Positions 2,353 to 61,445 of a stretch of 64,000 nt of DNA are shown one piece after another (the stretch's first letter is position 1; every line of letters begins with the position of its first letter). The translations under genes were made by a program, and so were the position numbers. Below the pieces are notes generated by a model. It was not told the origin of the DNA, made no database searches, and was given only the letters and a program-made list of their open reading frames with translations. This stretch comes from Lophium mytilinum (Eukaryota): the NCBI GenBank assembly GCA_010093605.1, contig MU004184.1, forward strand, positions 188,179 to 252,178, in the 5' to 3' direction.

Positions 2353-2412
2353 CTCGCGAACATTAGCCAATCCTCCCATGAGATTCTCGTTGCTCGGCAT
2401 GTTGATGGCCTG
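2353..2412 (-). pseudogene. GBP2: GBP2/HRB1-like RRM protein fragment (end of RRM1)
   Basis: Reads QAINMPSNENLMGGLANVRE (family [20 protein letters not shown]). A GTAAG donor follows at 2352, the same intron position as in the 60855-60948 copy. Confidence 0.75.
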
Positions 2413-2562
2413 GGTGGGGGTGCTCGACGCGTCCAGCATCATCGCGTCCTCAGACGTTACGGAAGACATTGTGGAGGTGAGAGAGGTGAGATTGTGGGGT
2501 GAATTAGACTGCCTGATGCAAGCGATCGGCCTCAGGAAGGTGGATGAGGGTTGGTGTTAAGG

Positions 2563-2622
2563 CAGCAATCCGTCCACAAGGTTCTGGTTGCGGAGAGCGT
2601 TGACGGCATGTTGGCGCAGCTG
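2563..2622 (-). pseudogene. GBP2: Second GBP2/HRB1-like RRM1 fragment
   Basis: Reads DQLRQHAVNALRNQNLVDGLL, matching [19 protein letters not shown]. Confidence 0.65.
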
Positions 2623-5600
2623 ATCGGCTGGACAAAGATGTGTCCATTGACGCACAAGGACCTTACTAGTCAGCAATCTGTTGAATCTTTGGGAGGGCAG
2701 AGACGATCTCACCTGCATGACGGAGAAGGAGTCTTGTTCGAGCTCTGCGCACCGACGAGACCGCTCCTCTCCTACGGAGTGAAGAGAAGAGGACCGGAGA
2801 AAGACGACGCAGAAGCCTCACTTTGGCAAGCCGAGCTTACCGACGGAGGCTTTCGAGTAGGGTCAAGGCTAGTAGGCTAGGGAGACCGAAGCGTTCATTT
2901 TCGGTCATCTCCGACAAACGCTTGTGCTGCGGTACCTGCTGACTTGGAGACTGGACGGCATCCGACCTAAAGCTCTGATCCCACTGGGTCTGCTGTGTCC
3001 GCTGGGTAGGTCAAGTTCGCCCATGCGACTCACCCAGTCTTCGTTGGGATAGAAGCTGCGAGCTTGTCCGTTGTGGCCGGCCACTTCTGGGCCGAACGAT
3101 GACGCGGTGTACGTCGGATATGCAGCGGACATAGACGTAGGCAGAGTTGCCTGTTGGGTTTACTCGTCCATATTGAGGGTTGGTCGGCATGTTCTCACGT
3201 CCACAGGAAGCATTGGCCACTACTGGCGTCCGTCCGTACGAAGAATTGAAGGCTGCATTTGGGGGCGACAGGACTGTCAGCCCGGCTAGCGGAGATGGTC
3301 GCGAGAGGCCGGAGTAGTTTCCTGGGGGAGGAAACGAACCCATTGACGGCCTAGAGGGTTGTTGTGGTCAGCATGCAGGCTTGGTTGAGAGACGTCGACT
3401 GCCTGGCACTGACGCAGCGGGCGGCTCGCGACAAGACCGGCTGCAGTGGGCCAGCTCAAGCGGACGAGGAGAACAGATGAAGAGAGTAACGTACATAAAG
3501 CCGAAGATCATGTCTGCCATCTCCCTGAAGAGCGGGCGAGGTGGTGAGGATGGTTAAGGCGGAGGTGAGGTAGGTAGAAGGTGAGGTTGAGGTGGGGCGA
3601 GGCGCTGGATATCAACATAGTGGGGCGGAGGTTGCCGTTAGCCACAGCGGCAGCAGCTACGGCAGGTCACTCGCAGTGAGAGCGCCCGATAAGGTCTGCG
3701 AAAAAGACTCATTGAGCAAAGATTGCAGTGCACTGGAGCGGTCGACGCCCTGGTAAGCAAAGAAACCAGGGACGTCCGCAGAACATGTCTTAAGGCGGGG
3801 GAATTCAGTTCTTTAGGCACTTACTGTACGCATTGTATTTTTAAATAGAGTATAAGAGACAGTGGACACTAATGCCTATGAGTTGGTCGTTTCGATTTGG
3901 CTTTCCGCTGGCGATTTTGGCGTGCTTGTGAACCATGGCACCGCGAGGGCCAACCTTGGAATGCCATACTCTATATCAACGTCACGAGTGCTAAACAGCC
4001 TGCAGAGAATGCCATGATTGAATTGAGTTAGCATCTATAGTTTACAAAGATATTGAGTGGTCAAAGACGCATTGCCTACTCAGTGAGGCATGGCACAGAA
4101 ACAGCGCGTTCGCTTTTCCTGTGAGCATTAACTATCCACGCCACGGCGGAGAATGCACATGCTGAGGATGTTGCGGAGGTTTAGAGCCTCTAGAGCCCTC
4201 TTTTTCGTGTATAGGTAGGGAATTGGCGTGATGTCTACTCAGTGAGGGACGGGCGCTGCTCTACGCAGCCATTGCGGGCGGGGCCAAAGGCGGCGATGTC
4301 CCCGCTATGCGGCATTCCAGAGACTTGCGCTCGTCCTCCTCCACAACCGCCTCAAACCCATACCGCGACGGGCCCTGAAGCCTCTATGTATCCTCCGAAT
4401 GCCCTCTGAAGGATGCTGACCACCCTTATTTCGGCTCGGAAGCAAAAGACATCGTCGGCGCCTCGATTACGAGCACCACCTTGAGCCCCCAACCTCTTAA
4501 CATGCGTCCAATGGCGCTCTGCAGAGCTTTCCGAGAGTAGTGACGTTCAAGTCTTCCGTGTTACCAAAAGTACTGACCAAGAGCTCTGTGCCTACTAGTA
4601 GACATCATCAGCAACGCCCCTTCAGCGTGAACAAAACCGCTCCTCCTCCGTTCTACCCCTTCGAACCTCACGATCACGGTGTCAGAGACCCAAAAGCCCT
4701 TCCCCAACCCAGACAAGCTGCGTACGACGATGGACCACCCGTAACATCCTCCCTGACATCTCCACCACCAGGACCCAGCCCCATGGGACCTTTTTTCTGT
4801 ATGCGTTGATCCTCAGGATCCACCCAGCCAGCTGTCCACACCCTCCATCAACGCACATCGACCAATGCTTTGCTGCACATTCCGGAAAAAGGCCTCTGAG
4901 TTTGCTCAAGGCAAGAGCAAACAAAGTCATGGATCGAGGTGGACGGATTTTCATCACCACCCACGGCATCGTGGAAAGAGCTAGGGCGAGTTTTATCAAA
5001 GCAGAGCACCCAGAACCATAGCATGTCGCGCAGGCTCGTTTGATCCTTCCCTCCCCGCAAGGGGCCAGCAGACATTCTAGCTGCCTCTTAATATCCTTGA
5101 CTCCCTGGCCACCTGTTCACCCTCGCCGGATGGAGGGGGCGGTGGTTGATTCCTGGAGAAAGGAAGTTGAGGGCAGGTCTGGGGGGCCTTTTATACCTCG
5201 CTGGAATGGCGGCAGGGAGGCAAGCACGTGGTACCCGTGGTACTTTGAGGGCTTCCAGAAGGATCGACGCCAGTTGAAGTAATTCACTGAACGATGGCAA
5301 ACACCAGGCCGGCGAGAGAGGGGAAGGTAAGAGCCGGTAGCATGCTATCGCGGAGGCGGAAAGCAGACGCTAGAAGCATACATTCTCGGCTTAGCACGTA
5401 GCAATACCGAAATCTACTCCGTCGTGACCACACGTGCAGACCCCGTGCCACTAAGCCGCCGCGGCAAACTCTTTTCTTGCTGGGGTATAAAAGACTATCC
5501 TGGAGCTCCAAGAATCCTTCTTCGGCAGGCAGGGCAAGACGAGGAAGAGGAGGACACTGGGGTGATCAAAAAGGCGTGGCTGGACTGACCATGAGGGCTT

Positions 5601-6183
5601 AGTGTGTTTGTTCGAACAGCAACACGCGAGCCCATGCATGGAAAGTACAGTCGTGTCTTTCGATCAGTAAACTTGTGCATGAGCTTGACCATGTCGATCA
5701 AATGTGGCAGGCTAGGTCTCACATGGGGGCTTCGAATAGTGGTATCCGTGGACCTCATGGGAGATCAAAGCTGTTATGGAACATCATCATGGAGGCAACA
5801 ACAAGCAATTGCAGCCGCCGTTATGGGAGTTGGAAGCTCGGTTGGGAAGACTATCACGTCGGCGGTGTTGGTGAAACACATGTGGCCGAGAAGGCCGATG
5901 GGTAGCGGGGGTGCCTTTGGGCTGGTGATGAGGTCAAGCAACGTTGATTGATGGTGGAGGATACTGAGAGCAACTAATGATGGCGTACATGTGGAGACAG
6001 AAATAGTGGGTTTGTAGAGGAGAGATTGAACATCTAGCGAAGATGGCTATAGTGAGAGATTGGCACATTTGATACGAAATGGTGATGCGTGCAATTATCA
6101 AATAATGTATATTGGAAGACAGTTCACCGCACTTGGTTCGTAAACCCGTAACAGCCTCCTACATCGTCACTCTCGTGACTAGT

Positions 6184-11990: not shown

Positions 11991-12534
11991 TCATCGGCTG
12001 ACCATCAATATCAGGTATCGGAAGTAAGTAATCAGGCTATCTCACTCCTCTACCAAATTCGCGTCATCGAAAACCTCCCCTTTGTGCCCTTGTCTACACT
12101 CGTCTACAATCCTCCCATTTAGAGATTCTGTGCATGAGGCGATGCGAATCTCGACTTTTTGGGAAGGCACCGAGCCTTCCGGACAGATAACGCTCTTCAT
12201 GCACCTGTCCGGTCGAACAGCAGGGTCCGCCAGCATGGTGTGTTTACGCTTCGGCGAAGAACCTAAGTGCTGTGCTGGTCTCCTCTGCTCATCGCCGAGA
12301 AGAAGAGGGGCCTCCGGGCCGATCACCTCATTGCGTATCGTAAAAGGGCATCGTACGAAACCTCCCCGTAGTACTCTGCAGAAGATACCGTCATACATAA
12401 TTATCGCTTTCACTTCTCCTGCCTGCACTTTCAGAGGATTGCAAAGGGACGTGCTAACAGCGTCACAGGACAACAGTTTACTAACCACGCTTTCCCACAC
12501 AGATGTGCAACGAGTGTTTCATGATTAGGTGTCC

Positions 12535-12660
12535 GGCTTTGGCGACATCCAAAGCTCGAAGTCGATCATCGATCTGAAGACGAGCCTCTGCAAAGGGTAA
12601 GCATCTTTTCCATACTCACAGTCGTCAGCTGCTAACTCGCAGCCTCAGATTTGGCTTCAC
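12535..12660 (+). pseudogene. MSSP/Spo5-like RRM protein fragment (RRM1), copy 1
   Basis: Reads GFGDIQSSKSIIDLKTSLCKG|FGF with retained intron 12597-12648 (GTAAGC..GCTAAC..CAG). Confidence 0.8.
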
Positions 12661-12762
12661 GTTTGGGGGTGTCGGATTTCCTTCGAGTCTTCACCGGCAC
12701 TACTATTGCTCCTGAGGATGCGTTTGATCCTTCTAAATGACCAAGTTTGACCGATTTCCTGG

Positions 12763-12942
12763 TTCTGGAACATCCAGAGCTCGAAGCCGATCATCGACTT
12801 AGAATTCATCCTCCGCAAAGGGTGAGTGACTTTTCCTTCGCTCCACGTAACACGGGTGACTCGCGCTTTCAGATTCGGCTTCATCAAGTACCACAACTTT
12901 GCGGATGCTGAGCACTGCATCCGCGGCTTCCACGATGTGGGT
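12763..12942 (+). pseudogene. MSSP/Spo5-like RRM protein fragment (RRM1), copy 2
   Basis: Reads NIQSSKPIIDLEFILRKG|FGFIKYHNFADAEHCIRGFHDVG. Intron 12822-12872 is at the same position as in copy 1. Confidence 0.85.
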
Positions 12943-13899
12943 TGTGTCGGAGGCTTAATCAATGCTTAGTTCCTGTCGATCATCCTGCTTTCATTGGATG
13001 AGCAAAGTTCGCTTACGAAAACAACATCTGCTCCGGGGATGTTGATGCTGGTATGCTGGGCTCATGCACTATCATTACTAAATGCAACAAGTGTTATCTC
13101 ACCCAAGGGATTTCATAGTAATATTTCTAATTTTTAGGATCGGATGAGTGGAGAAAGGTACAAGACAACTCTGATGCTCACAGCCACACTTTCACATTGC
13201 GCAAAGACGTTGAGACTCTCGCTAGGTACGTCACGTCACGCTCTACCCACATCGACCATTCCTGCAAAGCCCCCGACTGATCCAGTGTTACAGCGCGGCT
13301 CATTTCCGCTGCCTCTCCATCGTCTGATCCCAAATTCCCCTCTCGCACCCCAGCAGCATCTTCCCGGCGAGACCCACACTGCTCTTAAAGACAAAACGAA
13401 TAACAATGTGGGCAAAATGATCAAGTACACTGGCGGCGAAGGCATCGATAGGTTAGGAAGGATAGTAGGAAGACCTGGCAAGACCGTGTACCATGCTCTG
13501 TCACAGAGTGCCACTTCCCGTCTCTGCTCATTGCCTTTTCTCCAACCCGTTCGCATCCATCTTCCCTCCCTCCTTAGCCCGTGGGTTCTCTTCTGCCACA
13601 TATCACCTCCAGTCTGGCTCCGGTAACCGTGGCAGAATTCCTTCACGAGCCTGTCGGGGTAGCCAGAGCCTAGAGCGATGCCGCCATCTCTTCTCGAGCC
13701 TGGCTGGCAATGAATTCTCCAAATTGACCACAGTGCTAGAATGGGCCTGGGAAGCCTGCTCCACGGAGGCGGATGCAGTGGCACTGGACCCGTACGGCCT
13801 TGGTGGATGTGGCCCGCCCGAGGAAAGGCTTAGGCGGTAGGTTATTCGACTCATACAAACTCAGGTGAATGTCTGGTATGCGATTCATCAATTTCAGTT

Positions 13900-24886: not shown

Positions 24887-25762
24887 CTACTCCTTCTTCT
24901 CCTCCCACTTCCTGATAGTCCCCAACAACGCCTCCTTCAGTGGGACCTCCTTCTCCAACTCACCATAAATCTCATGCCAAAGCGCCTTATCCTGGGCCGC
25001 TCGCCACTTCTTCCGCTCGTCGCTCATCCCCTTCTCTGCCCCCATATCTCTACGGATCTTGTCCTGCCGCTGCAACTCAACCAGAATACCTGTGATGTCA
25101 GTGAGACTGCGCGTAGCAATTCGCAGCTGATTCGTGACTTCTGCAAAGATAGTCCCAAGACGCTCTTTGTCAGATGGAGTCTTACCGTCTTCGTTGCGGA
25201 CGATGGACTTCAGCGCCGCGTTGGCCATCCGCAGCTCGCCGAGGTAGAGCTCGCGGATCTTGAGGACGTGGGGAAGAGGCGGGGGGTGGAGGACGCAGCG
25301 GATCGTGAAGCGCTCGATGGGGTTGGGGGTGCGCAGGAGAGCGCGCTGGGTCGCGTCGCTCAGGTCTTGGTAACGAGGCTCGAGCTTGTCGTAGCCAGAG
25401 ATGAGGTTGTTGCAGCTCTCGCGTAAGTTGATGTAGGTATGCATGTTGGGGTAGTCGGGGGTGCCATCGGCGTTGATGATCTTCGGCTGGCCTGGGAAGT
25501 CTTTGGGCTTGTCTTTGGTTGGATGGGACTGGGGACGTGGATGGGGTCGCTCAGGATGGGAATCTTCGCGAGCTTTAGGGCGATGAGAGGGGCGCCGGAA
25601 CTCACCCTTGCGCTCATGTTGCTCTCGGTGAGAATGGTCTCCACCTTTGCCCTTTTTGAATTTATGCTCTACGCCATCGATGATTTCTTCGATAGGGTAT
25701 TGTCGAGAGGCGCGCTCGTGGTCGCCCTTTTGGGAACCGTGCCGATGGGTGTTCAAAGGCAT
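24887..25762 (-). CDS. Hypothetical protein (291 aa): low-complexity N-terminus, helical C-terminus
   Basis: Uninterrupted ATG-to-stop ORF with coding-like codon bias. No family recognised. Confidence 0.7.
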   Translation of the reverse strand: MPLNTHRHGSQKGDHERASRQYPIEEIIDGVEHKFKKGKGGDHSHREQHERKGEFRRPSHRPKAREDSHPERPHPRPQSHPTKDKPKDFPGQPKIINADGTPDYPNMHTYINLRESCNNLISGYDKLEPRYQDLSDATQRALLRTPNPIERFTIRCVLHPPPLPHVLKIRELYLGELRMANAALKSIVRNEDGKTPSDKERLGTIFAEVTNQLRIATRSLTDITGILVELQRQDKIRRDMGAEKGMSDERKKWRAAQDKALWHEIYGELEKEVPLKEALLGTIRKWEEKKE

Positions 25763-27248: not shown

Positions 27249-27373
27249 ACCTTTGAAGACCCAGACAGCAGGATGAAGATCAATCATGCGGATCAAGTAG
27301 CTCACTGTGGCGTAGGTGCCTTCGCCGAGCCTCTCGAGCTGCTTAAAGAGCTTGGATGCTTGCGGCTGTCCAT
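27249..27373 (-). pseudogene. PHO85: PHO85 CDK fragment: exon 1, intron, start of exon 2
   Basis: Reads MDSRKHPS(S, -1 frameshift)FKQLERLGEGTYAT, then intron 27305-27261 (GTGAG donor, acceptor mutated to TGG), then VFKG. Confidence 0.85.
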
Positions 27374-30133
27374 CGTGATCTGCTAGCCTCCGCCAAGAAT
27401 TCTGGCCTAGATGGACCAGTCGTTTCGCGAGTTCAGCGAGGGAGTGCCTGGGTGTGTCCAATGGAGCGTCCCTGGGACGGACGAGAGGCGTACTTGGGGT
27501 CCCGAAAAACAGCGCTGGCGGTGGTGAGATGGTTGGCGATGGCAAGTGATGGTGGGGGTGTGTTGGAGCGTGACGCCGGCGCCCTGCGGTATTTAGTCCT
27601 CTCTTTCGGGTCGTCCACTACGGCGATAGGGATATAGTGCCGCCGTGCAGGAGCCGTACCCAGCGGGATGCTTGAAAAGTGCTGGCTCCGCGGATGTGAT
27701 CCAGAAGCGATTCGCATGGTTCGCGAACCTTGGAGGATGGTTCTAAGCACGTCGTCACAGGCGTTTCTGACGGATAGGAACGAGGCATATGTCGACAATC
27801 CGCCCTTTAACATACTAGTGTCAATCGTGTGGCCCTTCTTTATGAGAAAAGAGTGGGAAGGCCAATAGCTGAGCGTAGCAACGGGTATCGCCCAGGGAGG
27901 GTCAACTTGTCGAAGTAGGCGTCACGCGTTTCGATTCTGCGCTGCGGGATGCATAGAAAGCCTGCTTGAAGAAGACAGAGGAGGACTTCGGCAATTTCGC
28001 GATCGGGGACCAAGGATCGTGGATCGGGCATGGAGGTTCACGCGACGCGCTTTCACGACCGCGAGAAGGTCGGGGAACCCTTCAAACCATTCACTGCAAG
28101 CACGCGTCTCCTCTCATTTTAGGGAGACGCATAGCTACTTGACGCTCTGTGAATGTGCCACCGCACCAAAGACTCTTCTTCAATCACCCGCGCAAGGCGA
28201 GCCGATCAATGGAAAGATTGTGTGCTCAAAGAGCGGGCCAGCAAAAATTACGCCAGTGAACCAGCCGAAGCCGACCCGATAGCGGACCCTCGCCACAGTG
28301 TGCAATGCAGGAGGTTCCACTAGGTGATCGGATCCATGAGCTCGATCACCCTGACAAGGTAGTGTGTGTGGAGGAGAAAGAGGTTCAGAGGGGAAGCGAG
28401 CTTATAAAGGTGGGCGAATGTCTGCCAAGACGCTAGCAGCTAGCGTATGGAATTTGGTGGATGGTGAACGCGGTTGCTGCCTGGCGTCTAGCGTCATGGG
28501 TGAGATGACTAAGGGAGAAAAATGCTCGGGATCGTGCTTGGGGACCACGTGTACAGCGTAACGAGTAGGAGAAAGCGTCACTGACGGGATGTTAGATGCT
28601 ATACCGTCATAGTAGAGGCCCTTGGAGAGTGGCATATCATTATTACAAGCAGCGGCAACTATCTTGAGCTATTGCTGAAGCCTGGCGTAATTCGTGGGTC
28701 ATGATGGCGCTTTGGAAAGCACAGCCAACGCTTGCTGAGCAACGAGTTCAAGCCTAGCACAGGGGCCCAAGCTCCGGGCTCTAGAGTAGACTAAGGCACG
28801 ATCTTATACATGACTGGCACATCCAAGCTTCATACGTTGTGGCACGGGAATCGGGACGTTTGACATTCAGTGACGGAGGGAATCCCGCAGGCAGCGAGGC
28901 CCAGCGCGGAAGTGTCAAGTTCGGGCCGGATAGTCACCAATCATCGCCACGTATACCTAGCCGAAGATGCCGTACAACCAAGAATCTTGTTAGAAAAGTT
29001 GCTATCCAACGTCACCATTCATTCTCGATTATTCATTCACTGCGGAAGACGAGGCCTACCCCTGCCATCCCACCTCGATCCTAAAAACTCCAGTTCGGGC
29101 GACCCCGCCACGTTTCAAAGAAAACCCCCCTCTTTCGACGGTTTGGGCTCATTCTTGGATTTTAGCTCTCAATACCGGGCCAGCTTCAAGACCTGCTATG
29201 AAATGGGGAGGCAATTGAGCTTTTGTTCTTTGCTCGCCATAACCTAGAAAGTGCTTCATAAAGGCCGCAGACATTAACGCGGAGCCTGAGCGAGTTTCCT
29301 AGGATGTCTTCCAGTGAGCATGAAAACATCCTCCGGCTAACCCGTTGGCTAGAGAACACCCCAAGCTCATCGAGATGGTCCTGTCGCTAGGTTGCATAGT
29401 TGACATGTTAAACTCGCCGGGAAGGTTCTGTAGGTGGTGTTAAGATGCTCCTTTGAAAGCTGTGACATGTATCGGCTAGACGTACAGAATGGAATCGAGG
29501 ATCATAGATTTCATTTTATTTATCAAGCACAAACTCATAGACGTTACTTAATCCCGATCTCCACTGGCCGACCTGTCCCGTGCTTTTAGTCAAATTGCTA
29601 TGCCCAGTCGCATTCATCGAGGACATCGCCTCAGATACTGTCAATGGCAGCGCCCAATGGCGAAGATACCCGGTGCTCTCAATCCGACCGCAATTGCAGG
29701 CAAGATCTACCCCGAGTCACCCATATGCCCCGCTAGGCCATCATCAATCTTACCAGCCCAAGGATCGAAAGTGTCCGAGGGTAGTGTCTCGTCAGCTGTC
29801 AGGTATCTTCTTCGAGCTCGGCCGCTTCCAACAATTCTGCATTGACAAAGCTCCAGGACCAAGTCTTCGTTAATCTCGTTGACTGGGAGGAGGATAACAT
29901 CTAGCGTGGGACTTTTGCGAACATCGTCAATAGGTCAAGCGAGAAAAGCCCGTAGGTTGTGCTGGACCACGGGCGCACTCACCAGTTCGCGCAGAAAGCC
30001 GAAAAATAAACTCGGTGGCTGTCTTTATTGGGTCCATTCCATCGCATCTCACTCCGGCAGAAGGCCATGACTTCATCTTTCTTTTAGTCACCACGTAGTT
30101 TGCTAGACCGCCTGCTCCGAGAGGATCACACCA

Positions 30134-30260
30134 CTGCCGCGTGAAATCTTTCAGGTGATGCCATTTGACATCGTAAGGGAGGTTGCCGACGTAGACGCGG
30201 CGATTCTGTTGTAAGGACTCCCGCGGAGACTGCATCATCTGCTTCTTGGCCTGCTTGTCA
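30134..30260 (-). pseudogene. GBP2: GBP2/HRB1-like fragment (start of RRM1)
   Basis: Reads QAKKQMMQSPRESLQQNRRVYVGNLPYDVKWHHLKDFTRQ. Confidence 0.9.
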
Positions 30261-36600: not shown

Positions 36601-38649
36601 AATACGTCACGTCACCACACAAGATAGCTTTGCTTGAAGCGAAGGAGCATTTCTTCTTCGAAGCCCCAGACAAGCTGAGGAGTTCAATGAAAAAAAAGTT
36701 TCGCGTCGGCCCGAGGCAGTGCAATACGAGCGACACTGTGTCCCTGGACATAAGCAAGCCCAGCGGCCCAGGAACGGTTTCCAAAGAGTGGATTAATCAG
36801 GGAAGGCCCCGTAGGACCGTTTCAGAGATTAAACTGAAAAGAACCTGTGAAGATGTTAGTGATGGAAGCAAAAGGACGGCAAGAAAAGAGGAGAGAAGGA
36901 GGAGACTTACAGATACTACTCTTGATCTAAGCCAAAAGGCACTGTGATGGTTGTCAGTGATGATCGAGTGAAGGGTGGATGCGAGTGAGTGATGGTGAAG
37001 GAAGGGAAGTGGGAAAGGATGGGGAGTTGGAGAGGATGGGGGTGGGGTTGGAACTTACAAGAGAGCTGAGGTTTGGAGACTGCTCGAGGCTGAGCTTTTG
37101 TAGTCGACAGACGGCGCTAGTCTGGCGTGATGACTCATCAGCGCTAGACCGTTTAACCGAGCAGGATAACGGGGCCAGAGACCTGGGCGAGTGCTGCCTA
37201 GGCTCCAGTAGCTCGAGAGGGAGGTGGAGCGACTCGGCTACCGGCCAGACGCTTTACACGTGACGAAGGACTTTCCTGTCTATGCCGCCAACCCTGCGCG
37301 CGCTAAGTTCTACATTACGAGGGCAATTCCAATTATGGCCAAGATTCAAGGAACGGGTACTATGCTGGGTGAGCACACGTTATCTGAGGTGACGATGCTT
37401 ATCTGCATTCTCCGAATCTTTCTAACGCCCTTTTCTGAAAAGTGTTACTGTACCTATCTACTTAGGGAACATCAGGCTCGGAGCTGTATGTGAAGCTCGT
37501 CTCCACATTAAGACAAGGACGGCTGATCTGTCAAATCTTAGGAAGCATCTGACGGTAGGTGCAGCCCAATACGTACCCCTCGGGTCCATCAGTTGTTTGC
37601 TACAGGATGCAAGCTTTGCGTTACTTCCTTGCTAGTCAACTCTACGTAGCTTCTAGAGCGTCTTAGTACGGAGAGCTGGTAGATTTACGCCATGGAGAGG
37701 CGCCCCGGCTGTTCAGTACTGTGGACCCGTCTCCCCAGAAAAGAATGGCCACACGGTATCACAATGTTGGCTTATTGCTCCCAAGCAAAGACATTCACCG
37801 GCGGATCAACGTTGCAGTCGCCATGCCTGAGCGCCTGATTGACTCCTTCCAGCAGACGTACAACCTCCAAGTTGGTTCACACGCATCATCTGGAGGGAGC
37901 GGCCGCTCACTTACAATCAGGGTCGATCCACTCCTGGCGATGAGATTAAGTGGTACCCCTTCAGCTACTGCCATCCAAGTGAAGTGGCACAACAAACTGC
38001 GCCCTACCGCGATCTCGCTTAAGACTTCGCTCACCTCAGCCAACCTTCCAACTCGTCACCTTGCCTACTACACCACTACCAAAGCTTGCCCTCAGAGCAC
38101 GAGTCGCAAGGCCTTGTTACGGACCTCATCTCCCGTCGAAGCCCTTGCTTGGCGACATGCCGTGTCGCCGCGCGTCTCCAAGTGAAAGAGTGAATTCTAG
38201 TAAGCAGAACCCCGGACGGTACTACTTCACCCGCCACCTACGAAGTGAAGAGGTCTAACTACTTCTAGATACCGCAGTATTCTTGCTGTAGACCGCCCAC
38301 AACGGACCTCATCGCCTACGCCTTGCTCTACGCGTCGTAAGCATTCCGCGAGCAGACCGCCACCCGAAGCCCGACAAAACGCACGCGATGGCATCGCGTC
38401 CTGGCTCTGCGGGCGGTGCCGTCATTCCGCTACTTTCCGCGCCTTTTTCTCGGGCCAGCTACTGGGCCCTCACTCAATCTTCGCTGGGTCCACATATCTT
38501 CCTCCATACGCTTGATGGCTCTCCGATCGTAAATGGCAGCTGGACACTAGAATCTCTGAAAGTAGCTGTAGCTCAGCGGTGAAGTCGCCCGCCGTTGGGA
38601 GTGCGAACTGGCAAAGACAACAAGGCTGGCAAAGACGAAAAGTTTGGCA

Positions 38650-39030
38650 AGACGACGAGGACCCTTCAACCGGGTGGTGAGTTGTTCTCGATAACATTTC
38701 TCACTACCGTCGCCAACAAAATCTTAAGGGGTTATCCGCGAGACGTGTCTGGGTCGATACTGGGGGGTGCTGGGTGGCTCCGACAGGGGAAGCGCATTCA
38801 GCCCCCCAAAAGACTTAAAGCACCATCGTGAAGTTTGTGGTCGACCCTTGTCACATCCCCGAGCGAGAACAGTGTGTTTCGGCCACCCGGCGGAGTAAGT
38901 ACCACTTCATCACATTCCCTTACCGTGGCTAACAGAATATTAAAAGATTGATCGCGAAACATGCCTTGTCCGATGCTGGGGGTGCTGGGTGGCTTCCGAC
39001 ACAGGAGGCGCATCCAGCCCTCACAAGGCC
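38650..39030 (+). repeat. Tandem duplication of an exon-intron-exon module of unknown origin
   Basis: Two GTRAGT..CYAAC..AAG intron-like segments, each followed by CGATRCTGGGGGTGCTGGGTGGCT..GCGCATYCAGCCC. Confidence 0.7.
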
Positions 39031-39047
39031 CCCGTACCGCAAATATG

Positions 39048-39491
39048 CAGTTCAACGGATACGACTGGCAAGGCCGCCAGCTCGAGGTTCGCGAGGATCG
39101 TTTTGCCCAAGGTCCCCCCGGCAGAGCTCGGGAGAGCTATAGGCTGTTCACCCTAGGGTTGGACAACCCACAAGGATAGAGTGCCACCAAAGGTTTGGGT
39201 CGACTCTGACCCAAGCCCAGAGGCGCTTGAATGCGTCTGGCGTGCGGCGCATGGACTCAACCCTAAGCGCTGTCCAAGACCTGCGTAACGAGACTGTTGA
39301 CTGTAGACCAAAACACTTCCCAACGACTTCACCGACTTCGCAACCTTGGGCGGCGAGGTAAGTGAAGTCATCCACGTCCGGAATGTAAGTGGCGTGACTC
39401 CTCCCTTCTATACAAGAGACCGACCGCACTCAGCTCCCGTGGTTAACAACCAACGAGAACTTGGTAGAGCTGTTCAGGACTAGGGGCAAGG
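39048..39491 (+). pseudogene. GBP2: GBP2/HRB1-like fragments (end of RRM2; linker and start of RRM3)
   Basis: QFNGYDWQGRQLEVREDRFA at 39048-39107. Then PNDFTDFATLGGEVSEVIHVRN, intron 39385-39433, LPWLTTNENLVELFRTRGK. Confidence 0.9.
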
Positions 39492-39643
39492 CCCCCCTTC
39501 TCAACGAACACCCGCTACCCTGCCAGTGGCTCTGTTGGTCTCGACAATCCGAATGTGTCCCACAAGGTCGAAACACCCGTCCAACAGGTCATGATTGTTC
39601 CGGAAACTATGCTTGGGGGTCAGCCGCGCCGAGATCCAGTGCG

Positions 39644-39768
39644 AAGCAGGGATGATGTTCAGCGCAACTCTCTCTGAGGACATCCGTCCCGTCTGCAGGA
39701 TGTTCATGCAGAATCCGCTCGAGATCTACATCGACAACCAGGAGAAACTCACTCTCCATGGTCTCCAG
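39644..39768 (+). pseudogene. SUB2: SUB2/UAP56 fragment (motif III and downstream) embedded in the GBP2 mosaic
   Basis: Reads KQ(V)[39 protein letters not shown]. It is directly preceded by GBP2-like VSRAEIQCE (39619-39645). Confidence 0.92.
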
Positions 39769-39814
39769 CCGATGCCCGTTCCCGTGGTACTAATGTAGTC
39801 CAACTCGAGAACCT

Positions 39815-40163
39815 AGAGGGCCCAGCTACAGCACGAAGCCCACGATCGCCCCTATAGTACTGTTGCGGTTCAGCTGGAGAAGCCAGAGGATAGAGTTACT
39901 GCCCGAAGTGAACGGTCGCTCCCGTGGTACTAGTGTGGTCCAGTCCGAGAAAGTGGAAGATGCAGTCACAGCTATCTGTACGTCGTGTCCTGTCAGCCTT
40001 CGAGATACCATCTAACCATTCCACAGCCAAATGCACTGGATATCAGTACGGTAGTCGCCCGCTTGGCATCTCTCACGTCCGCTACACCAACATCTCCAGC
40101 GGAGGCGAGGCTATGGAGGGAACTGAGGCTACTGGCGGTCTTACTCAGGATCAGATCATGTAG
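39815..40163 (+). pseudogene. GBP2: GBP2/HRB1-like RRM3 C-terminal fragments up to the native stop
   Basis: Duplicate piece RAQLQHEAHDRPYSTVAVQLEKPEDRVTA. Then EVNGRSRGTSVVQSEKVEDAVTAI, intron 39978-40026, SKCTGYQYGSRPLGISHVRYTN..GGLTQDQIM*. Confidence 0.9.
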
Positions 40164-43100
40164 AGCGCTCATTGGCTTAATGTTATTTTGAGATTTGGCG
40201 AGGTCAGCGAAGTGGACCTGTTCTTGACGCTAAGCGTAATAGTAAAAGTTTTATTTTCTGACGTCGTCTTCTAAATGAATGTGTCGCTACTTGTCCGTGA
40301 AGACTCGCCCTTTACGCATACCTATATGACTAACCAGCTCCGTCCAGCTAGTTGTAAGATTGCCTGCTCAGCCACATTCTCTATATTTGCGATACCAGAC
40401 TTCACTTTTAGAACATTGGCGGAGTAAGCTGGACCTCATCTGGACACCCTTTGACCCCTCAACTTTCGAGCTCTGAGAGCGTTGTGGGTGAGGAGCTGCC
40501 TCCACCGTTAGGCGCGACTACATTAGCACTGCAACACTAGTATATCCGAAGCGGCTGGAGGGACGGGACCACTACAAGATGGGTACGGTAATACTTCATG
40601 TGAACGGCATTATGACGTACCTTACTGCCTCTTCTTCGCCGAGGCAGCGGTGGTCAAGTGTAATCTTTTTGCATCGAGGCTGAAATCAACATATCCCAGT
40701 TTCAAATCCTAGCTATGCGTGCTATGTAGAGATATGAGGTATAACCCTTCGCAGCTCCCGACGGGCGGTATGCATCCTGCTATCCCTTGGGCCTCTAGCT
40801 CGCTGCTCCATTTTATCATCGAATGCCCCCAGCCGTTGCCTCCAATAATGCGTCATCACGTCCGCCATCCTCCAGCTGTTATTTGTCTTCCGTTAGACGA
40901 GCCTCCACCGCCACTACTCCGTGAGGCAATTGAATCCGACTTGGCACTCGAGTGTCGTGGGCTTCGAGGTGGAGTCGGTCGAGAGGGTAGGCGTGGTCGG
41001 CGACTCTTTAGTGGGGGGAAAATCTATCTATCATTAGCGGCAAGGCCCAAGGCAAGAAGCACCGGCGCTAAGAGTCCTGCTTACCCTCGTCGCAACAGTA
41101 GTGAGGAAAGCCGGTATCTCACCCTCCGCTCCAGACGCTCCACAATTGCTATTAGATCTAACTCGCCAGTCTTCGGACGTGAAAATCTGTAACCGTGGTT
41201 GATGACCGCCGCGTCTGTATGATCCGCTCCCGACGACGCCTTTTCGGCTTTCTTTCGGTCCTTTTCGACGGCATTCGACTCGTAAAACACTGTTCATACT
41301 CACTCTGGTTTCTGAACCAAGGACCAGGAGACATGGGGTCGCCCTCCTCTTCACCGTTGTTTTCAAGTTTGGTAGCCATCTTCGAGCTCTGGTGGCTCCT
41401 CACATCGTCGAAAGAATGGCGTCTCGAATGAGAGTCAAAGGGGCCGCTGAAACTGAGCAACGTGGTCAGGTGAGGTTTCTTCGGACTGTCCATGATGCTA
41501 GTATCGGTCGAGATGCGGTGGAGGTCGGAGCCGAGACCAATGGTATGCTCGCTATAGCGTTTGTAAGTACACAGCTCCGTGCAGCCCCAAGCCTTTCTGA
41601 AGTGCTCCTCTGCGACATGTGACGTCTTGAGAAGCGCTTCTTCCAGATCAAGAATGGTGCGAGATCAGGAGATTGCTATCTCGACAGGTTGAACGAGGCA
41701 GGACGAGACGACGATATATGTGAGGAGCTCGGCTGTCGTCGTGGTCTTTCTCTAGCGCTAGTGCGTACACTCGGAGCTCTTGTAGGTAAATTCGAGGAGG
41801 AGGCTCTGTAGGCGCACTGTGGTGTCGATGGTGAGCTCTACAGTGGTGGGTTGGAAATCATGGCGTACAATATGGGAACACGGGCCACGAGTAGGAACTT
41901 TTCGAACTAGGAGGCGAAGGTGTAGTTGAAGGTGGTGACGCGGGGCGAAAAGTCAAGGACGAGGACGAGAACTCTGAGGTCGGGGTCTAGGACCACGGGT
42001 CTGAGACTACCTATGGGGTTGGTCATTGACGTGAGTTGAGAGAGAGGGATGACAAGGGCAAGATGACTTACGGGCCTCTTTCCCACTGCTGGAAGCTCCA
42101 TACGGTATCTTGTGCATGTCTTCTGCTTGACTGACCGGCCAATGTGATCCTGTTCGCAGATTGGAAGCCTGGATTCCTCGCTGCCGCGCAGGATAGCGCT
42201 GGCCCGTTCTGGCTTGGAAGGACGGTGCAGTGGTACATTCAAGCGGCTGTCCTTGAAGCAATCGCGCCATTGCCAACGGCTCATGGTGGGGATGTGCTGC
42301 TGGCTCTCATGGCGGATACGAAGGATGCGGGTTGATCCATAGCTTGACACCAGTTCGCCTTCGGGGTTACTGTCTCTTCTGATACGGTACGTTGTCCACG
42401 ATCCATGTCGTCGTTGATGGGTGCGTGGCTGCTAGCTAACAGACCTTCGTGAAGTAGAAGATGCTCGGCTAAGCTGGAAGTGTCCTTCGGTGTAGGGCTT
42501 TCGTCTACAAGGATAGATTGTTGCTTTCTCTGCTCTTCACGGCCCGATCTTCGATTACTGCGGTATATATCACAAGTATATATTGACTTCGACTGGAACA
42601 CCTTGGGCAATAACAGGTCATCCTTCGCTCAGCGCACTCCGACGTGTATGGTTGGGTAGAACAGCCAGACAGTTCGACTCGTCCTTCAGAGCCCTGGGAT
42701 CACTGCGGAAGCAGTAGCGTCACATGTCGAGGGCCTGGCGAGGTTGGCGGCCGTCATAGTGGGCTTCACGCTCAACAGTCAAGAGGAGGAGAAAGTCCGA
42801 AGCCTTTGGATCTTTTCAAAACGTGGCGTTATACGCTCAGAGGTTTCGGTGGGGTAGACTTTCTGTGGGCAAGTTCGCCATTGTCCTGCGCGAGTTGCCT
42901 TTTTGGTTGGGTTTAGGAGGGTTCTGGCGGACGAGAAGCTCGTCAACACTAATTCGGAGGTTGAGCTGTGCGTGTCGACTGAGAAGGGAAAATTGAGAAG
43001 CTCCAAGGACTACGCTTCTAATCGAACAGTTGGATTGTGGTGGGCTTTTCGATGGCGCTCGACTTTCAAACATCGAGCTCAGTTCCGAATCGAATGTCGG

Positions 43101-45411: not shown

Positions 45412-45515
45412 GCCTTCGGGCATTTGGTCAATTTGAAACAACACAGAGAAGATTAGCATGGCCCCTGCACTAAGGATGACACGCTTTATCAAAGAGTAGC
45501 TTCAAAATTTTTTTT
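45412..45515 (+). ncRNA. SNR6: U6 spliceosomal snRNA
   Basis: 5' GCC-TTCG-GGC hairpin, TTTGGTCAATTTGAAAC, ACAGAGA box 45443-45449, GATTAGCATGGCCCCTGCACTAAGGATGAC and a T-run terminator. Confidence 0.96.
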
Positions 45516-45553: not shown

Positions 45554-48500
45554 AAGGGTGGACCTATTTTTTTTGCCCATGGTACAGTCTTTTTGCACTC
45601 GCGTGGCAGCAGTTAAGATTTGATTTTGCTACAACATACAGCTATGAAACGTATACCATATGTTCCTGGCTTATTTCGCACGTCACTGTCGCTCGAATGC
45701 TAAAACCCTCATTTGTCCGCTTTCCTTGGGCCATCAGAACGAACGCCCAAAAACATCATCCCAACAACGAGCGCCCCATTTGAGCGCATAAGATCTCACA
45801 TGTTGATCCTAGGTCCATGCTAACTTCAATTTGGCCTTCTGAGGCGTCACTTCGGGCGATACCCTCCTTTAGCAAAGATAGCGGCACTGTACATCACCTT
45901 GACTTGCGCGAGTCACTCTACCTCTCAACCTTCCAGCTTTCCCTTTAAGAAACCCTGTTGAAGTCCAGTCTTGTCATAAATCGCTAATATGAGATAATTT
46001 GTAGCTTCACGCGTTCTACCGCACGCACCGCCGTCCAGAACCTCTCGTCCCCCTCCCCATGTTTGTCTCGAGAACATCATCCTTAACCCGACCCTCACAC
46101 TTCTCTTCTTCCAGTCATTCGGTAGCGCCCATAGTGTCGCCTCCAACTCCAACTCTACCATTACCGCTCCAAAAAGAGAGTAGACCGCACGTCCCGCCGT
46201 GAGACTACCAACTCGCCCGCTCTCAAAGACGACTGCCACGTCTGCCAACAGGACCCCTGACTCCTACACTCATCCGCCCATTTTATCGTCTGGCAGACCG
46301 CTATAACACCATCCTCGTCGCCCCTCAGAAACCTCTATTGCGTCAAGTTCCGACTCTGACTTTCGGAACTCGCCAACGGTACCCCCGGCACAATCTCCTT
46401 GTCGCCTCCCACGCTGCCTTCGTCGCCTCGCACTAGTTCCTCTTCCGTCAAGTTTCGAGTTCGAGTCCCGGAGCGACCACCGACGCCCTGGGTACGTTCC
46501 CCTGACCTGTCGCTCAGCCTGTGTATGAGGCCACCGCGTCTTCCCCTTTGGCCGGAATCCGACTTGGAGCCCCTTGATGGTCCACCAGTCATTATACAAG
46601 GCACCCTAGGAGTAGCTTCAGCCAAATACATCGTGCGCCTACAAAGCCACCTACGTCCGACCCTTCTGGTAACTTCCAGCACCGGACCTTCATGTCGACC
46701 AACGCGTTTGCCTACGAGGCAGTCTCTCCCCATCAGAATCGTGTCGAGTGTATCCTCCGACACCTCCTAGAGCCCCGAAGCGCCCTATCTCACGATCACA
46801 TATACCGTTCTTCAGGCGTTGTCGATACGGCTTTTCAGAGACTGTAGGTGAGGCTGACAAGCTTGGACGAGCGTAGACTCGAATACGTGGTGTAACATAA
46901 AACGTATGTGAGGGTCAATCAGCGAAGACCTCTGGGTGCCCATCTGCTTCCCGACCCCAAGACAACTACCCCAAAGCAAGCGTTGAGGCCGTTTTGGACG
47001 CCAAGCGAGTTGAAGAGGAGCCGTATCTCCGCAGGGGCTACTTTCAGCCGCCGTCGATTACAAGGTGGCAGAAAGGAAAAGCAGGGGTCCCTTTTGCGTC
47101 AGGAGCTGGTATTCGTACGAAGCATCTGGTCGGCGACTCGTAGTTCCGTCGCGACGATCCTCATGAGTTCTCGAAATTCGAGATCCTCTTTGCAGACGAG
47201 CGTGCAGTACCTCTGGATCATGATGAGAGCAACTACAAGGCAGTCAAAGAGGAACTGCTCGATAAGATCCCCACGGAACTAGGCACTCCCATCGTGCACC
47301 TGAGGTTCGGAACACTTGGTTTCCTCGGCCGAGTCGCCATTGATGTTGTCATTGAAGTCAAAGCTACACGGGAGGGGTTCGTTGTGGGCGCCTTGCGCAG
47401 AGCTCGGAGTAGGTTCTTCTTCTAACGCCTCTTCCGTAAGAGGTGGGTATGATCGGGTGGTACTTGGCAGTGCTATTGGAAGTACTATAGGCCATTGAAG
47501 GCCTTCGTGCGGCGGTTGAGAAGCCAATTTGTCTCTCAATAGTCGACTTGCCGTGTCAACAACACCCTTGTCTCAAAAATGTATGAAAACTCATCTCCGT
47601 TCACATTGATTTTGTAGTGCGAGTTTCTTCTGCTGTAATGATCATGCAAGATATCTCTAGCCCATAGCCGGGATCTCGCGTATGTGAAGTCGTTGGGCGT
47701 TTGGGACAGCTTATAAATCCATGGATATGAATGTTGCGCGAGGTGCGAAGAGGGACGTTTGTACTCCTTGCGAGTATGCTGGCGTCTTGGAGTTTCATGG
47801 GACGACTGGATTCTTAGGTGGCAATGATAGAGGTTTTATCAGCACAGCATAATGATAGCCCGAAGGTCACTTCTCTGGGCTTATGGATGAGAGGTAGGTC
47901 CCCTGTGAATTGCGAATGTGAAGGTAAGCCACTAGGCTTGCTAAGACATTATATCGAGCTACATCGACAAAGCTCCCAAAAGAAAACTCTCACGTCGACT
48001 GGCTTTCAATGAAAGTTGCTTCAATTCTGCTTGCGGGGACTTGTTACTAATCTAAGACACCTCCTGCAGTGTGATGGATTTGAAATTGACATCTAAAGCC
48101 CGTAAACCTCTGGCCAAGCTCTGATGACCGCGTAACTTCTTCTTCAACTTGCAATGTAAGGCTCGGGACTGAATTAGGCTCTTGTGACTGCACATCTCTT
48201 GGACGGCGCTCTTTCCGTGTGCTCTTGAACTGTAGCTATGCACTTCAGACAGCATCCGCGGATAGATGGAATGGAACTCTGACGCCTGGTCCTCCGCAAC
48301 AATCGCCATAAGTCATCTCCACTTTCTTCCTACTTCCCCTCATCGCTACGTTCCCCAGCCCCCAGTCAAAATCGAATAACTCTCCGCCCCAAAGCAGCCT
48401 TGCCATGCTGCCTTTTCTCGCTACAGTTTCCAATGCGAAGACGGCGACAAACGGGCAGACTCAGGCAGATTGAAGGCATCTTTTACTGAGACGATGAGTA

Positions 48501-53671: not shown

Positions 53672-53833
53672 CAGCACGTCAACATCGTCTCCATGTACGA
53701 CGTCACCCACACCAAAAATAGGCTGATGGTCGTCTTCGAGTACATGGACAAGGATCTGAAGAAGTATATGGACTCCAGAGGCGACCGTTGCCAACTGGAC
53801 CCAGCCACGATCAAGGCCTTCATGTTACAGCTC
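53672..53833 (+). pseudogene. PHO85: PHO85 CDK fragment (subdomains IV-VIa)
   Basis: Reads [54 protein letters not shown]. Confidence 0.9.
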
Positions 53834-54180: not shown

Positions 54181-54253
54181 CTCTGGACTACCTCGGCCCT
54201 TGTCCTTGTACCTGTTCTGTCTCAGTTTCGCCGGGCACCAGACTAGCATTTGT

Positions 54254-54346
54254 GGCTTCGACGCAGGAGTCGCATCCAACCCCTCCAACGACTTCACGGG
54301 ATTCGCAACCTATGGCGGCGAGGAGAGCGAGTTTTCTACGTTGCGG
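54254..54346 (+). pseudogene. GBP2: GBP2/HRB1-like RRM2-RRM3 linker fragment
   Basis: Reads GFDAGVASNPSNDFTGFATYGGEESE, paralogous to 39319-39384. Confidence 0.75.
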
Positions 54347-57311: not shown

Positions 57312-57509
<198 letters not shown>

Positions 57510-60779: not shown

Positions 60780-61010
60780 TGGTTCGGCCTCGCGGTCCTG
60801 ATTATTCGATTAGTATTGGTGCGCTGGATTACATGTAGGGGGGAAGATTCGTACCTCGCGGACGTAGACCAGTCTGCCCATCAGGTTCTGGTTGGAGAGA
60901 GTGTTGACGGCCTGTTCGGCTTGTTCCCTAGTCGCGTACTCGGCAATTCTGCCGTGCATGTTAGCTGTGTGGACTAGTGAGGAGGAAAGACGGAGAACTT
61001 ACCCGAATCC
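60780..61010 (-). pseudogene. GBP2: GBP2/HRB1-like RRM1 second half with two retained introns
   Basis: GFG, intron 61002-60949, [31 protein letters not shown], intron 60854-60798, DREAEP. Confidence 0.92.
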
Positions 61011-61253
61011 CAATGCACCACGGATTACGTCCATTCCGCAACTTCAAGATCTCTAGCATCTGAGCCCACGGCGTGGAGGCTCGCAGTGGTTCTGACATAG
61101 CCGAGGTTCCATGCTCCTCCCTCACTGCGCTTCCTCGCGCTGCAATTCTTCCTCAGCATCCAGATGTGTTCCCCTCGGCCCTTCGAGCTTTTATATCAGA
61201 AAGAAAGCGTGGGAAGGAACAGGGGATGGCGGGCAAAGCTCAGCGGAGACGGG

Positions 61254-61331
61254 CTTGGTCGGGAGTGCGGGTCCACACGCCTTGGTCGGGAGTGCAGGGT
61301 CCACACGCCTTGGTCGGGAGTGCGGGTCCAG
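61254..61331. repeat. 27-bp minisatellite (3 units)
   Basis: CTTGGTCGGGAGTGCGGGTCCACACGC, about three copies. Confidence 0.9.
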
Positions 61332-61340
61332 CCGTGGTGG

Positions 61341-61445
61341 TCGGCAGTGCGAGAGTTGGAAGATCTCAAACGCGTCCAGAAAGAGAATTTCAAACACCAT
61401 CTCGGTGAGGATCTGGATGCCCATGACCTGCTTGGTAGCAGGACT
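61341..61445 (+). pseudogene. Possible highly decayed PHO85 pieces
   Basis: SAVRELEDLKRVQKENF resembles TAIREISLMKELKHENI. NTIS..AHDLLGSRT resembles NTFSNEV..APDVLLGSRT. Confidence 0.4.

Follow-up and report, generated by a model that had tools for sequence, protein, structure and literature searches.

Short stretches of genes in foreign positions have been described in several systems, and the closest to the case reported here are the distant templated insertions of yeast, which are copied and pasted from distant loci into a break while the donor stays intact. In the parts of the source report on which we draw, such insertions can be complex, multi-fragment events, often contain two fragments of one locus in inverted arrangement, and are associated with slippage and microhomology (PMC11724301). 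They are experimental, somatic events at a single break, mostly from <100 bp to ~1.5 kb long. Non-syntenic extra copies of core genes, some present many times, are likewise known from gene-poor dispensable DNA of fungi: as far as the portions of the two reports used here go, the redundant genes of the Zymoseptoria tritici dispensome are core-gene copies without synteny (PMC3111534), and the supernumerary genome of Fusarium poae carries 104 copies of 44 core genes, with one gene in up to 11 copies (PMC4994206). Gene-fragment capture by Helitrons, fungi included, is also in print, again judging from portions of the sources (PMC4289320, PMC5148889). The present analysis concerns a stretch of 64,000 nucleotides of Lophium mytilinum (GCA_010093605.1, contig MU004184.1, positions 188,179 to 252,178 of the forward strand), hereafter the window, which holds scrambled pseudogene fragments from a small, open set of donors, chiefly a PHO85-type cyclin-dependent kinase (CDK) gene, a SUB2/UAP56 helicase gene and a GBP2-like gene. 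Most of this patchwork is best regarded as neutral debris of repair and duplication and not as a targeted gene-fragment system. No description of such a patchwork in Mytilinidiales was found in the literature, which is weak evidence for its absence.

The window represents a part of a Dothideomycete chromosome that is poor in genes. Its G+C content is 50-56% with zero N, neither telomere repeats nor tRNA genes were found over the 64 kb, and the best protein matches of the fragments are Dothideomycete proteins, Mytilinidiales foremost. A Pfam scan of 622 stop-to-stop open reading frames (ORFs) of at least 55 aa, at E<=0.01, returned a single full-domain protein, a 591-aa kinase ORF. The survey of donors by Pfam is partial, as most of the confirmed short pieces were missed by it, so that its blanks do not mean absence. 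Full-length orthologues were fetched by phmmer with three fragments as queries and mapped back by tblastn, and family hidden Markov models (HMMs) of 26 PHO85, 24 SUB2 and 54 GBP2-like orthologues were searched against the ORFs of 12 aa or more in all six frames. Moreover, the contigs of three public runs were aligned to positions 27001-41000 at >=80% identity; 14 of the 30 bins of this aligned region had no RNA-type contig, from which no conclusion on expression is drawn.

These contigs revealed the nature of the pieces. Other contigs of the same genome, of similar depth, align to each fragment in the 27-41 kb interval at 80-92% identity and represent the parent genes; the pieces are 45-300 bp DNA-level copies of intact, transcribed parents located elsewhere in the genome. 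The retention of introns (27273-27303, 39385-~39431, 39977-40027 and the flanks of the 60.9-kb exon) indicates that they were copied from DNA and are not retrocopies; upstream sequence is kept as well. Most of them bear disruptions, namely stops, frameshifts, a deleted codon or an internal deletion.

A first-pass annotation, based on the letters of the window, had proposed about 20 recurring pieces of the same few genes. The matches that were confirmed are far beyond chance and cover 12 of the 19 listed places, 3 others being weak and 4 unsupported, and the count of about 20 includes local tandem copies. All four PHO85 assignments (27.3, 31.2, 53.7 and 57.4 kb) were recovered by tblastn, those at 31.2, 53.7 and 57.4 kb by HMM as well, and the two further places regarded as possible PHO85 (29.3 and 61.4 kb) gave no match at E<1. 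The SUB2 pieces at 30.4, 30.8 and 39.7 kb stood, and the one proposed at 32.9 kb had no match. The GBP2-like pieces were verified at 2.4, 30.2, 39.0-40.2, 54.3 and 60.9 kb; the one at 2.6 kb has a blastn match of 78% over 51 bp only. As for the pieces attributed to an MSSP-like gene, 12.9 kb is weakly RRM-like and 12.6 kb is its tandem copy, with 68% identity, and nothing was found at 21.2 kb. The coordinates are given in Table 1.

Table 1. Gene-derived pieces and other features of the window (positions from its first letter; aa numbers refer to the parent protein).
Feature	Position	Strand	Evidence
PHO85 copy of the N-terminal extension and first coding exon, with 31 nt or more of intron 1; interrupted by several frameshifts and stops	27273..27567	-	tblastn to P0001 aa 10-98
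PHO85 piece: final ~7 nt of intron 1 and exon 2 to aa ~107; one stop, one codon deletion	31097..31359	-	phmmer E 1.8e-28; tblastn E 1.7e-34
PHO85 piece, aa 63-116, open frame	53672..53833	+	tblastn 78% identity, E 9e-23; HMM E 1.6e-27
PHO85 piece, aa 119-143	57411..57485	-	tblastn; HMM E 1.8e-11; Pfam Pkinase E 5e-8
SUB2 C-terminal piece with frameshift, aa 368-395; duplicates part of the 30.8-kb piece as a local tandem copy	30374..30470	-	tblastn E 1.2e-5; HMM E 0.017 and 0.12
SUB2 piece, aa 308-418, internal deletion and stops	30703..30999	-	tblastn E 4e-19
SUB2 piece, aa 220-269, embedded in GBP2 copy	39619..39771	+	phmmer E 1.1e-15; tblastn E 9e-19; HMM E 9e-23 (39622-39771)
GBP2-like RRM1-end exon copy (aa ~157-186), old, decayed	2323..2415	-	tblastn E 0.011; HMM E 1.2e-3 (2329-2415)
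GBP2-like RRM1-end exon, second, weaker copy	2563..2614	-	blastn only: 78% over 51 bp to 60868-60918, E 0.003; tblastn E 1.6
GBP2-like piece, RRM1 start (aa 86-125)	30113..30256	-	tblastn 85% identity, E 3.8e-16; HMM E 1.6e-19; Pfam RRM_1 E 0.005
GBP2-like mosaic partial copy, 3' half of gene	38490..40178	+	tblastn, HMM, parent-transcript joints
GBP2 copy, segment aa 269-304	39015-39122	+	tblastn/HMM
GBP2 copy, segment aa 373-395	39313-39384	+	tblastn/HMM
GBP2 copy, retained intron	39385-~39431	+	sequence read
GBP2 copy, segment aa 395-413	39431-39490	+	tblastn/HMM
GBP2 copy, 70-nt triplication, aa ~420-445	39777-39972	+	exact 70-nt repeat spacing
GBP2 copy, retained 49-nt GT..AG intron	39977-40027	+	skipped only by RNA-type contig
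GBP2 copy, segment aa 446-490 and 18 nt of 3' UTR	to 40178	+	tblastn/HMM, parent-transcript joints
GBP2-like linker piece, aa 363-393	54245..54346	+	tblastn E 3e-8; HMM E 8.5e-3
GBP2-like whole RRM1-end exon with intron flanks on both sides, well preserved	60822..60965	-	phmmer; tblastn E 3.9e-13; HMM E 5e-18 (60837-60956)
U1-like snRNA pseudogene	28221..28365	-	Rfam U1 32.5 bits, below gathering score 69.5, E 1.8e-4; extra DNA-contig depth
U2 snRNA pseudogene, branch-point-binding region altered	36695..36887	-	Rfam U2 75.3 bits
U6 snRNA, full-length	45412..45511	+	Rfam U6 86.5 bits, gathering score 44, E 1e-20
6-phosphogluconolactonase / glucosamine-6-phosphate isomerase family fragment in ORF	47144..47422	+	Pfam Glucosamine_iso E 7.5e-9, profile positions 55-91 of 225 only
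Piece of transcribed gene without Pfam match	33250..33429		2578-nt RNA-type contig at ~80% identity
Two tandem RRM-like pieces, parent candidate only	12528..12966	+	12528-12659 vs 12753-12883 68% identical; RRM_1 E 0.003, below Pfam cut-off
Intact single-exon gene of tiny lineage-restricted family	24890..25762	-	3 relatives in 1.84 billion representative proteins
Protein kinase ORF, intact, 591 aa	6187..7959	-	Pfam Pkinase E 1.3e-30

Two of the PHO85 pieces lie about 4 kb apart in the contig-aligned region. The first, at 27303-27567(-), matched the Pseudovirgaria gene model P0001 with a summed tblastn E of 4.5e-15; the parent transcript aligned to 27304-27543 with 36 mismatches and 2 gaps (38/240, 84% identity), and the parent DNA contig extends to 27273. 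The second gave an HMM E of 2.6e-35 at 31100-31333(-), and the parent transcript aligned to 31107-31352 with 39 mismatches and 3 gaps (42/246, 83% identity). A contig of run X3 joins 27304 to 31352 with 3 letters in between, and DNA contigs join 27273 to 31359 with 11 letters in between. The X3 contig is thus shorter by ~46 nt than the DNA contigs, which indicates that X3, labelled 'RNA?', holds spliced transcripts and that the parent PHO85 has a short intron 1; the same joints indicate that each of the two pieces carries part of this intron. The two pieces have the same orientation and a permuted order, in which the parent contig goes back 4087 positions, and they meet within 11 nt in intron 1. 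Such a permutation would have required a circular intermediate, templated copying that proceeded divergently from a single point of entry, or a pair of precise deletions within a tandem duplicate. No overlap of the two pieces beyond the intron was shown by local alignment (score of 26 against a shuffle mean of 25.6), and about 11 decayed exon-2 codons read by eye 3' of the intron at 27.3 kb were discarded for want of statistical support. Separately, ~75 residues upstream of the usual PHO85 start are conserved at the protein level between the 27304-27567(-) copy and P0001, and Dothideomycete PHO85 may have a real N-terminal extension.

The other two PHO85 pieces are near-adjacent in the parent, the one at 53.7 kb(+) ending at aa 116 and the one at 57.4 kb(-) beginning at aa 119, and are inverted relative to each other in the window, an arrangement that a single inversion would explain, its break lying in or close to intron 2. 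The top PDB match of 53672-53833(+) was yeast Pho85 (2pk9, E 1.2e-9). A PDB read-through search, with X at stops, covered 2 of the 6 frames of 41-56 kb: one frame gave nothing at E<=0.05, and in the PHO85-bearing frame the best 60 of 83 matches were all CDK-type kinase chains. The nucleotide identity between the 31.2- and 53.7-kb copies, which overlap over aa 63-107, is 74-81%. The 57.4-kb piece has 22 of 22 residues identical over aa 119-140 and terminates in a tandem repeat of 29 nt x2.4 (57370-57438). No trace of PHO85 aa 141-330 was detected in the window at E<1 by tblastn or HMM.

Regarding SUB2, the 30.8-kb piece was resolved by HMM into 30775-30867(-), E 1.6e-9, and 30706-30771(-), E 0.015, and the parent transcript aligned to 30707-30846 with 21 mismatches in 140 nt (85% identity). 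The 30.4-kb piece, 389 bp away, is 82% identical at the nucleotide level to 30786-30852. The third piece lies inside the GBP2 copy, is directly followed by the 70-nt triplication, and is closer to its parent, whose transcript aligned to 39652-39769 with 9 mismatches in 118 nt (92% identity). The same searches found no trace of SUB2 aa 1-219 in the window at E<1.

The GBP2-like parent is a three-RRM protein. Its most extensive copy consists of the pieces at 39.0-40.2 kb, which were detected by HMM as five pieces at 39030-40160(+) (E 2.6e-12 to 6e-4) and represent one copy colinear with aa 269-490. Its 40.1-kb piece differs from the parent by 14 mismatches and gaps in 152 positions (91% identity), and the copy stops 18 nt past the stop codon, at 40178, where the parent transcript continues for at least 255 letters more. 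The linker piece at 54.3 kb repeats aa 373-393 of this copy with 77% nucleotide identity (against 39312-39377). The RRM1-end exon was found at 2.4, 2.6 and 60.9 kb. The 60.9-kb copy, the exon limits of which were inferred from exon-plus-intron ORFs of other fungi, has an open frame, and 29 of its 31 exon residues match the orthologue; the 2.4-kb piece is 72% identical in nucleotides to 60848-60914. The 2.6- and 2.4-kb copies adjoin and share a derived R>G change, the former being probably a local tandem duplicate of the latter. GBP2 aa 1-85 left no trace in the window at E<1 by tblastn or HMM.

The earlier statement that the same gene segments occur in overlapping copies was borne out, with PHO85 aa 63-107 and GBP2 aa 373-393 each present twice and the RRM1-end exon three times. 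The related proposal, that the same few genes were sampled repeatedly, held in part: three genes recur and their parents are unlinked, many recurrences are local duplicates, and the donor set is open. The Mytilinidion resinicola orthologues of PHO85, SUB2 and the GBP2-like gene lie on contigs of 3.07, 1.96 and 0.42 Mb, and the SUB2 and GBP2-like genes of Lophium mytilinum itself on contigs of 2.48 and 2.04 Mb; the location of the orthologues on different contigs makes the duplication of a single, later shattered, neighbourhood unlikely. Since the recurrences are largely local tandem duplicates or parts of one partial copy, few independent acquisitions are required, at least ~2-3 partial copies per gene, and we infer that the founding events were few. 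The identity between the two overlapping PHO85 copies would suit star-like descent from the parent as well as an early split, and the data fit either copying of a copy or repeated capture. It had also been suggested that one ancestral composite cargo was amplified, which was not shown: the five distant copy pairs that involve fragment clusters match only in their gene- or snRNA-derived parts, and their unrelated flanks argue against an amplified composite unit. Moreover, little or nothing in the genome's other contigs aligns at >=80% to the DNA between pieces at 27-41 kb, and the window's own contigs have single-copy-like depth.

The pieces appear to decay neutrally. The differences between distant copies number 26, 16 and 32 at codon positions 1, 2 and 3, not significantly non-uniform, with a mild third-position excess; dN/dS values (NG86) between distant copies are 0.16-0.44, calculated from very few changes (PHO85 contributing 33 differences) and subject to bias from the way in which the pieces were detected. 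Repeat-induced point mutation (RIP) is commonly diagnosed with index thresholds of 0.89 for TpA/ApT and 1.03 for (CpA+TpG)/(ApC+GpT). No RIP signature was found in the window, with values of 0.77 and 1.16, and the changes relative to the parent are symmetric (A>G 41, G>A 45, C>T 33, T>C 34). The suggestion of an undescribed gene-fragment system was not supported, as the pieces carry stops and frameshifts and no hallmark of a transposon or of such a system was found.

The origin that we favour, with about an even chance of being right, is copy-paste repair followed by local duplication and scrambling and by neutral decay. The region would have taken in a few short, partial DNA-level copies of unlinked genes, namely the PHO85-type CDK, the SUB2/UAP56 helicase, the three-RRM GBP2-like gene, U1, U2, a 6-phosphogluconolactonase gene and at least two more genes, when a broken or stalled DNA end used distant templates to copy short stretches, by templated insertion or template switching. 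The same or later error-prone processes may have generated the local tandem duplications, with periods of 29-400 nt, the one inversion and the one permutation, and the pieces would then have decayed neutrally, with no shown function. We infer the repair mechanism and the neutrality, like the small founding number, from the arrangement of the pieces: the short intron-bearing copies of intact donors, the multi-donor site beside a triplication, the slippage repeats and the inverted or permuted order together favour copy-paste repair. Two properties of templated insertions were found here, an intact donor with a short partial copy, and several donors at one site together with a local triplication. 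The yeast insertions are experimental, somatic and confined to a single break, whereas the pieces described here would be fixed germline products spread over 60 kb; the likeness is one of layout, and the reuse of donors is unexplained. In comparison with the dispensable DNA of Z. tritici and F. poae, as far as it is covered in the portions of those reports used here, the window presents exon-intron pieces of 45-300 bp, scrambling at the sub-kb scale and admixed snRNA pseudogenes.

Several observations weigh against this origin. Hundreds to thousands of bases of unique DNA separate most pieces, which are not abutted as in yeast insertions, and random capture alone does not explain the recurrence of the same three donors. 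The 60.9-kb GBP2 exon and the 57.4-kb PHO85 piece are far less decayed than the pieces around them. In the two overlapping PHO85 copies the derived residues E>V and I>T are shared, at positions where all listed Dothideomycete orthologues have E and I, which hints at a copy-from-copy history, about one such coincidence being expected by chance. A stray copy of the same GBP2 exon exists in M. resinicola, on a contig that also carries an orthologue of a window gene, which one-off neutral debris does not predict. Finally, Pfam at E<=0.01 recovered none of the confirmed pieces at 39-40 kb, so the donor survey is not exhaustive.

The main rival is the erosion of a few larger duplications, in which whole genes or multi-kb segments would have been duplicated into the region, then again locally, and whittled down by deletions, insertions and inversions; we consider it unlikely, and transposon cargo, RNA chimeras and a functional archive less likely. 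Erosion would account for the colinearity of the GBP2 copy at 39.0-40.2 kb and its two kept introns, for PHO85 pieces that abut in parent coordinates like halves of one copy, for the 53.7/57.4 pair by a single inversion, and for distant-copy identities (72-81%) that fit one burst. The co-occurrence of GBP2 and PHO85 at 27-31, 53.7-54.3 and 57.4-60.9 kb, and of GBP2 and SUB2 at 30 and 39 kb, points the same way, and the F. poae supernumerary genome offers a precedent in the part of its report used here (PMC4994206). However, large parts of all three genes are absent at E<1 (PHO85 aa 141-330, SUB2 aa 1-219, GBP2 aa 1-85), the flanks of distant copies are unrelated though neutral decay should treat exon and flank alike, the 27.3/31.2 permutation would need two precise deletions, and a SUB2 piece sits within the GBP2 copy.

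A different extension of the repair origin is suggested by M. resinicola. Its protein P0171, of 430 aa and without Pfam domain, ends in the same GBP2 exon with intron flanks, a copy that looks much younger; this exon differs from that of the genuine M. resinicola gene, P0276, by one residue (R>Q), and the last 38 residues of P0171 are identical to the window's 60.9-kb copy at 34 of 38 positions. Nothing in the window corresponds to the N-terminal 392 aa of P0171, which, together with the lack of a Pfam domain, makes this gene model probably spurious. A single contig of 693,503 bp carries both P0171 and P0286, the accession numbers of the two, KAF2804211 and KAF2804250, being 39 apart, and P0286 is the closest relative (70% over 291 aa) of the intact gene at 24890-25762, the other relatives being from Glonium stellatum (38-41%) and Lepidopterella palustris (36-37%); this orthologue weighs against a strict lineage specificity of the region. 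Similarly, a partial protein of Lindgomyces ingoldianus, P0166, contains two tandem copies of the same RRM1. The stray exon could represent an old shared patchwork refreshed by gene conversion, selection on the exon, or repeated copying of a preferred donor into a preferred region. The window may accordingly be a conserved recipient region of Mytilinidiales that has repeatedly copied the same few donors in more than one species, a proposal that we regard as rather improbable, the alternative being a stray exon kept by gene conversion or selection. If correct, it would provide a natural, evolutionary-scale record of distant templated insertion, with a hot spot that receives copies and hot spots that donate them, such as fragile genes linked to transcription. 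The reuse of donors and the counterpart in M. resinicola deserve further pursuit, and true reuse of donors and recipient would offer a natural test of whether distant templated insertions, known from induced breaks in yeast and from cancer genomes, shape germline genomes, and of which donors are preferred. Even on the ordinary reading as debris, such patchworks seed spurious gene models, as P0171 looks to be, make gene families seem larger than they are, and interrupt short-read assemblies at the very sites of the fragments.

The cargo of a non-autonomous gene-capturing transposon (Helitron-like or Pack-type), amplified and then decayed, would explain the co-oriented, intron-bearing clusters, with six minus-strand pieces at 27.3-31.4 kb, all plus at 38.5-40.2 kb and two plus at 53.7-54.3 kb. 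Helitron and Pack-type elements likewise bring together co-oriented exon-intron fragments of several genes, and fragment capture by Helitrons, in fungi too, is published, as the available portions of the sources state (PMC4289320, PMC5148889). The window, in contrast, presents no repeated backbone, the clusters share no DNA beyond their gene-derived parts, and depth is single-copy-like, with the DNA between pieces in few or no other contigs at >=80%. None of the 622 ORFs matched Rep/helicase, transposase, reverse transcriptase or integrase families, a search that short or badly decayed remnants could escape, and none of the 9 inverted-repeat pairs in the window brackets a fragment cluster as terminal inverted repeats would, Helitron ends not having been specifically searched. 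Such a cargo is quite improbable.

Template switching by long interspersed nuclear elements (LINEs) makes U6-containing chimeric retrocopies in mammals and in a fungus. By analogy, a reverse transcriptase switching among nuclear RNAs (pre-mRNAs, U1/U2/U6, rRNA) could have produced chimeric retrocopies here, and the snRNA pseudogenes among the fragments, the sense orientation of all pieces of a cluster and the transcription of the donors would fit this; a mixture of snRNA copies and mRNA-derived pieces in one orientation is shared with the LINE products. Such an origin is very unlikely, as three introns are retained, no poly(A) tracts occur at piece ends, nor an A-run where the GBP2 copy ends, that copy stops 18 nt after the stop codon and not at a polyadenylation site, and no reverse-transcriptase remnant was found among the 622 ORFs. 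It is equally hard to credit a functional archive, in which pieces act on their parents as antisense or small RNAs or as decoys, or the stray exon is part of a real gene: the open 60.9-kb exon with 29/31 matching residues and its M. resinicola counterpart, the 22/22 residues at 57.4 kb, the mild third-position excess with low dN/dS, and a second, low-depth PHO85-like contig of run X3, distinct from the parent, would fit it, but the majority of the pieces are interrupted by stops or frameshifts, the dN/dS counts are very small and biased by discovery, P0171 is probably spurious, and gene conversion from the parent would equally explain the well-kept pieces.

Apart from the three main genes, the window contains pieces of other donors. 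The first-pass annotation had recognized U6, a probable CASC3/Btz piece and no other conserved genes. U6 was verified by a full-length Rfam match and is possibly a working gene; no CASC3/Btz match appeared in the Pfam scan of the ORFs. The absence of other conserved genes proved wrong, as a U1-like snRNA, U2, a 6-phosphogluconolactonase piece and two further transcribed genes are present. Many other U2 loci of the genome align at the U2 pseudogene (depth 1606 vs ~121). The 3' flank of this pseudogene (36600-36696) is 66% identical, inverted, to 51907-52000, where no U2 adjoins, and the latter may be another fragment of an snRNA locus. The transcribed gene piece at 33250-33429 adjoins a local duplicate, 33111-33225 / 33510-33624, with a spacing of 399 bp. 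A possible further donor piece lies at ~31.47/31.94 kb, one side of its joint comprising only 21 nt of contig. A segment of ~44 nt at 32044-32087(+) resembles large-subunit (LSU) rRNA, without confirmation by Rfam, which gave no LSU match; a contig that continues beyond this segment is of very high RNA-type depth. Each of these other donors was seen once, against 3-8 pieces per main gene; the donor set is open, yet PHO85, SUB2 and the GBP2-like gene are over-represented in a survey that is not exhaustive. One of the RRM-like pieces, 12826-12966(+), had a PDB match to HuD at E 0.44.

The 591-aa kinase ORF was considered as PHO85 and rejected, with 26% identity to it; a tandem repeat of 21 bp x3.7 (6481-6557) lies within the C-terminal part of this ORF. 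The window also holds 14 local duplication arrays with spacings of 105-800 bp and identities of 55-80%, which make up ~15% of its length, and the whole region seems prone to local tandem duplication. Old local tandem duplications without recognisable genes occur at 8791-9309, 11084-12080, 13662-14546, 21974-23023 and 54510-55814, in 2-5 copies with spacings of 160-800 bp and 57-70% identity. Two degenerate tandem arrays, 17475-18577 and 56230-57122, have periods of ~228 and 151 bp and are mutually inverted, with 53-57% identity, and the latter of them immediately adjoins the PHO85 piece at 57.4 kb. Finally, a dispersed repeat of ~150 bp, with a core containing CTCGCGAG, is present in both orientations at 14634-14874, 15042-15159, 16329-16466 and 20174-20354, and may be a small non-autonomous element.

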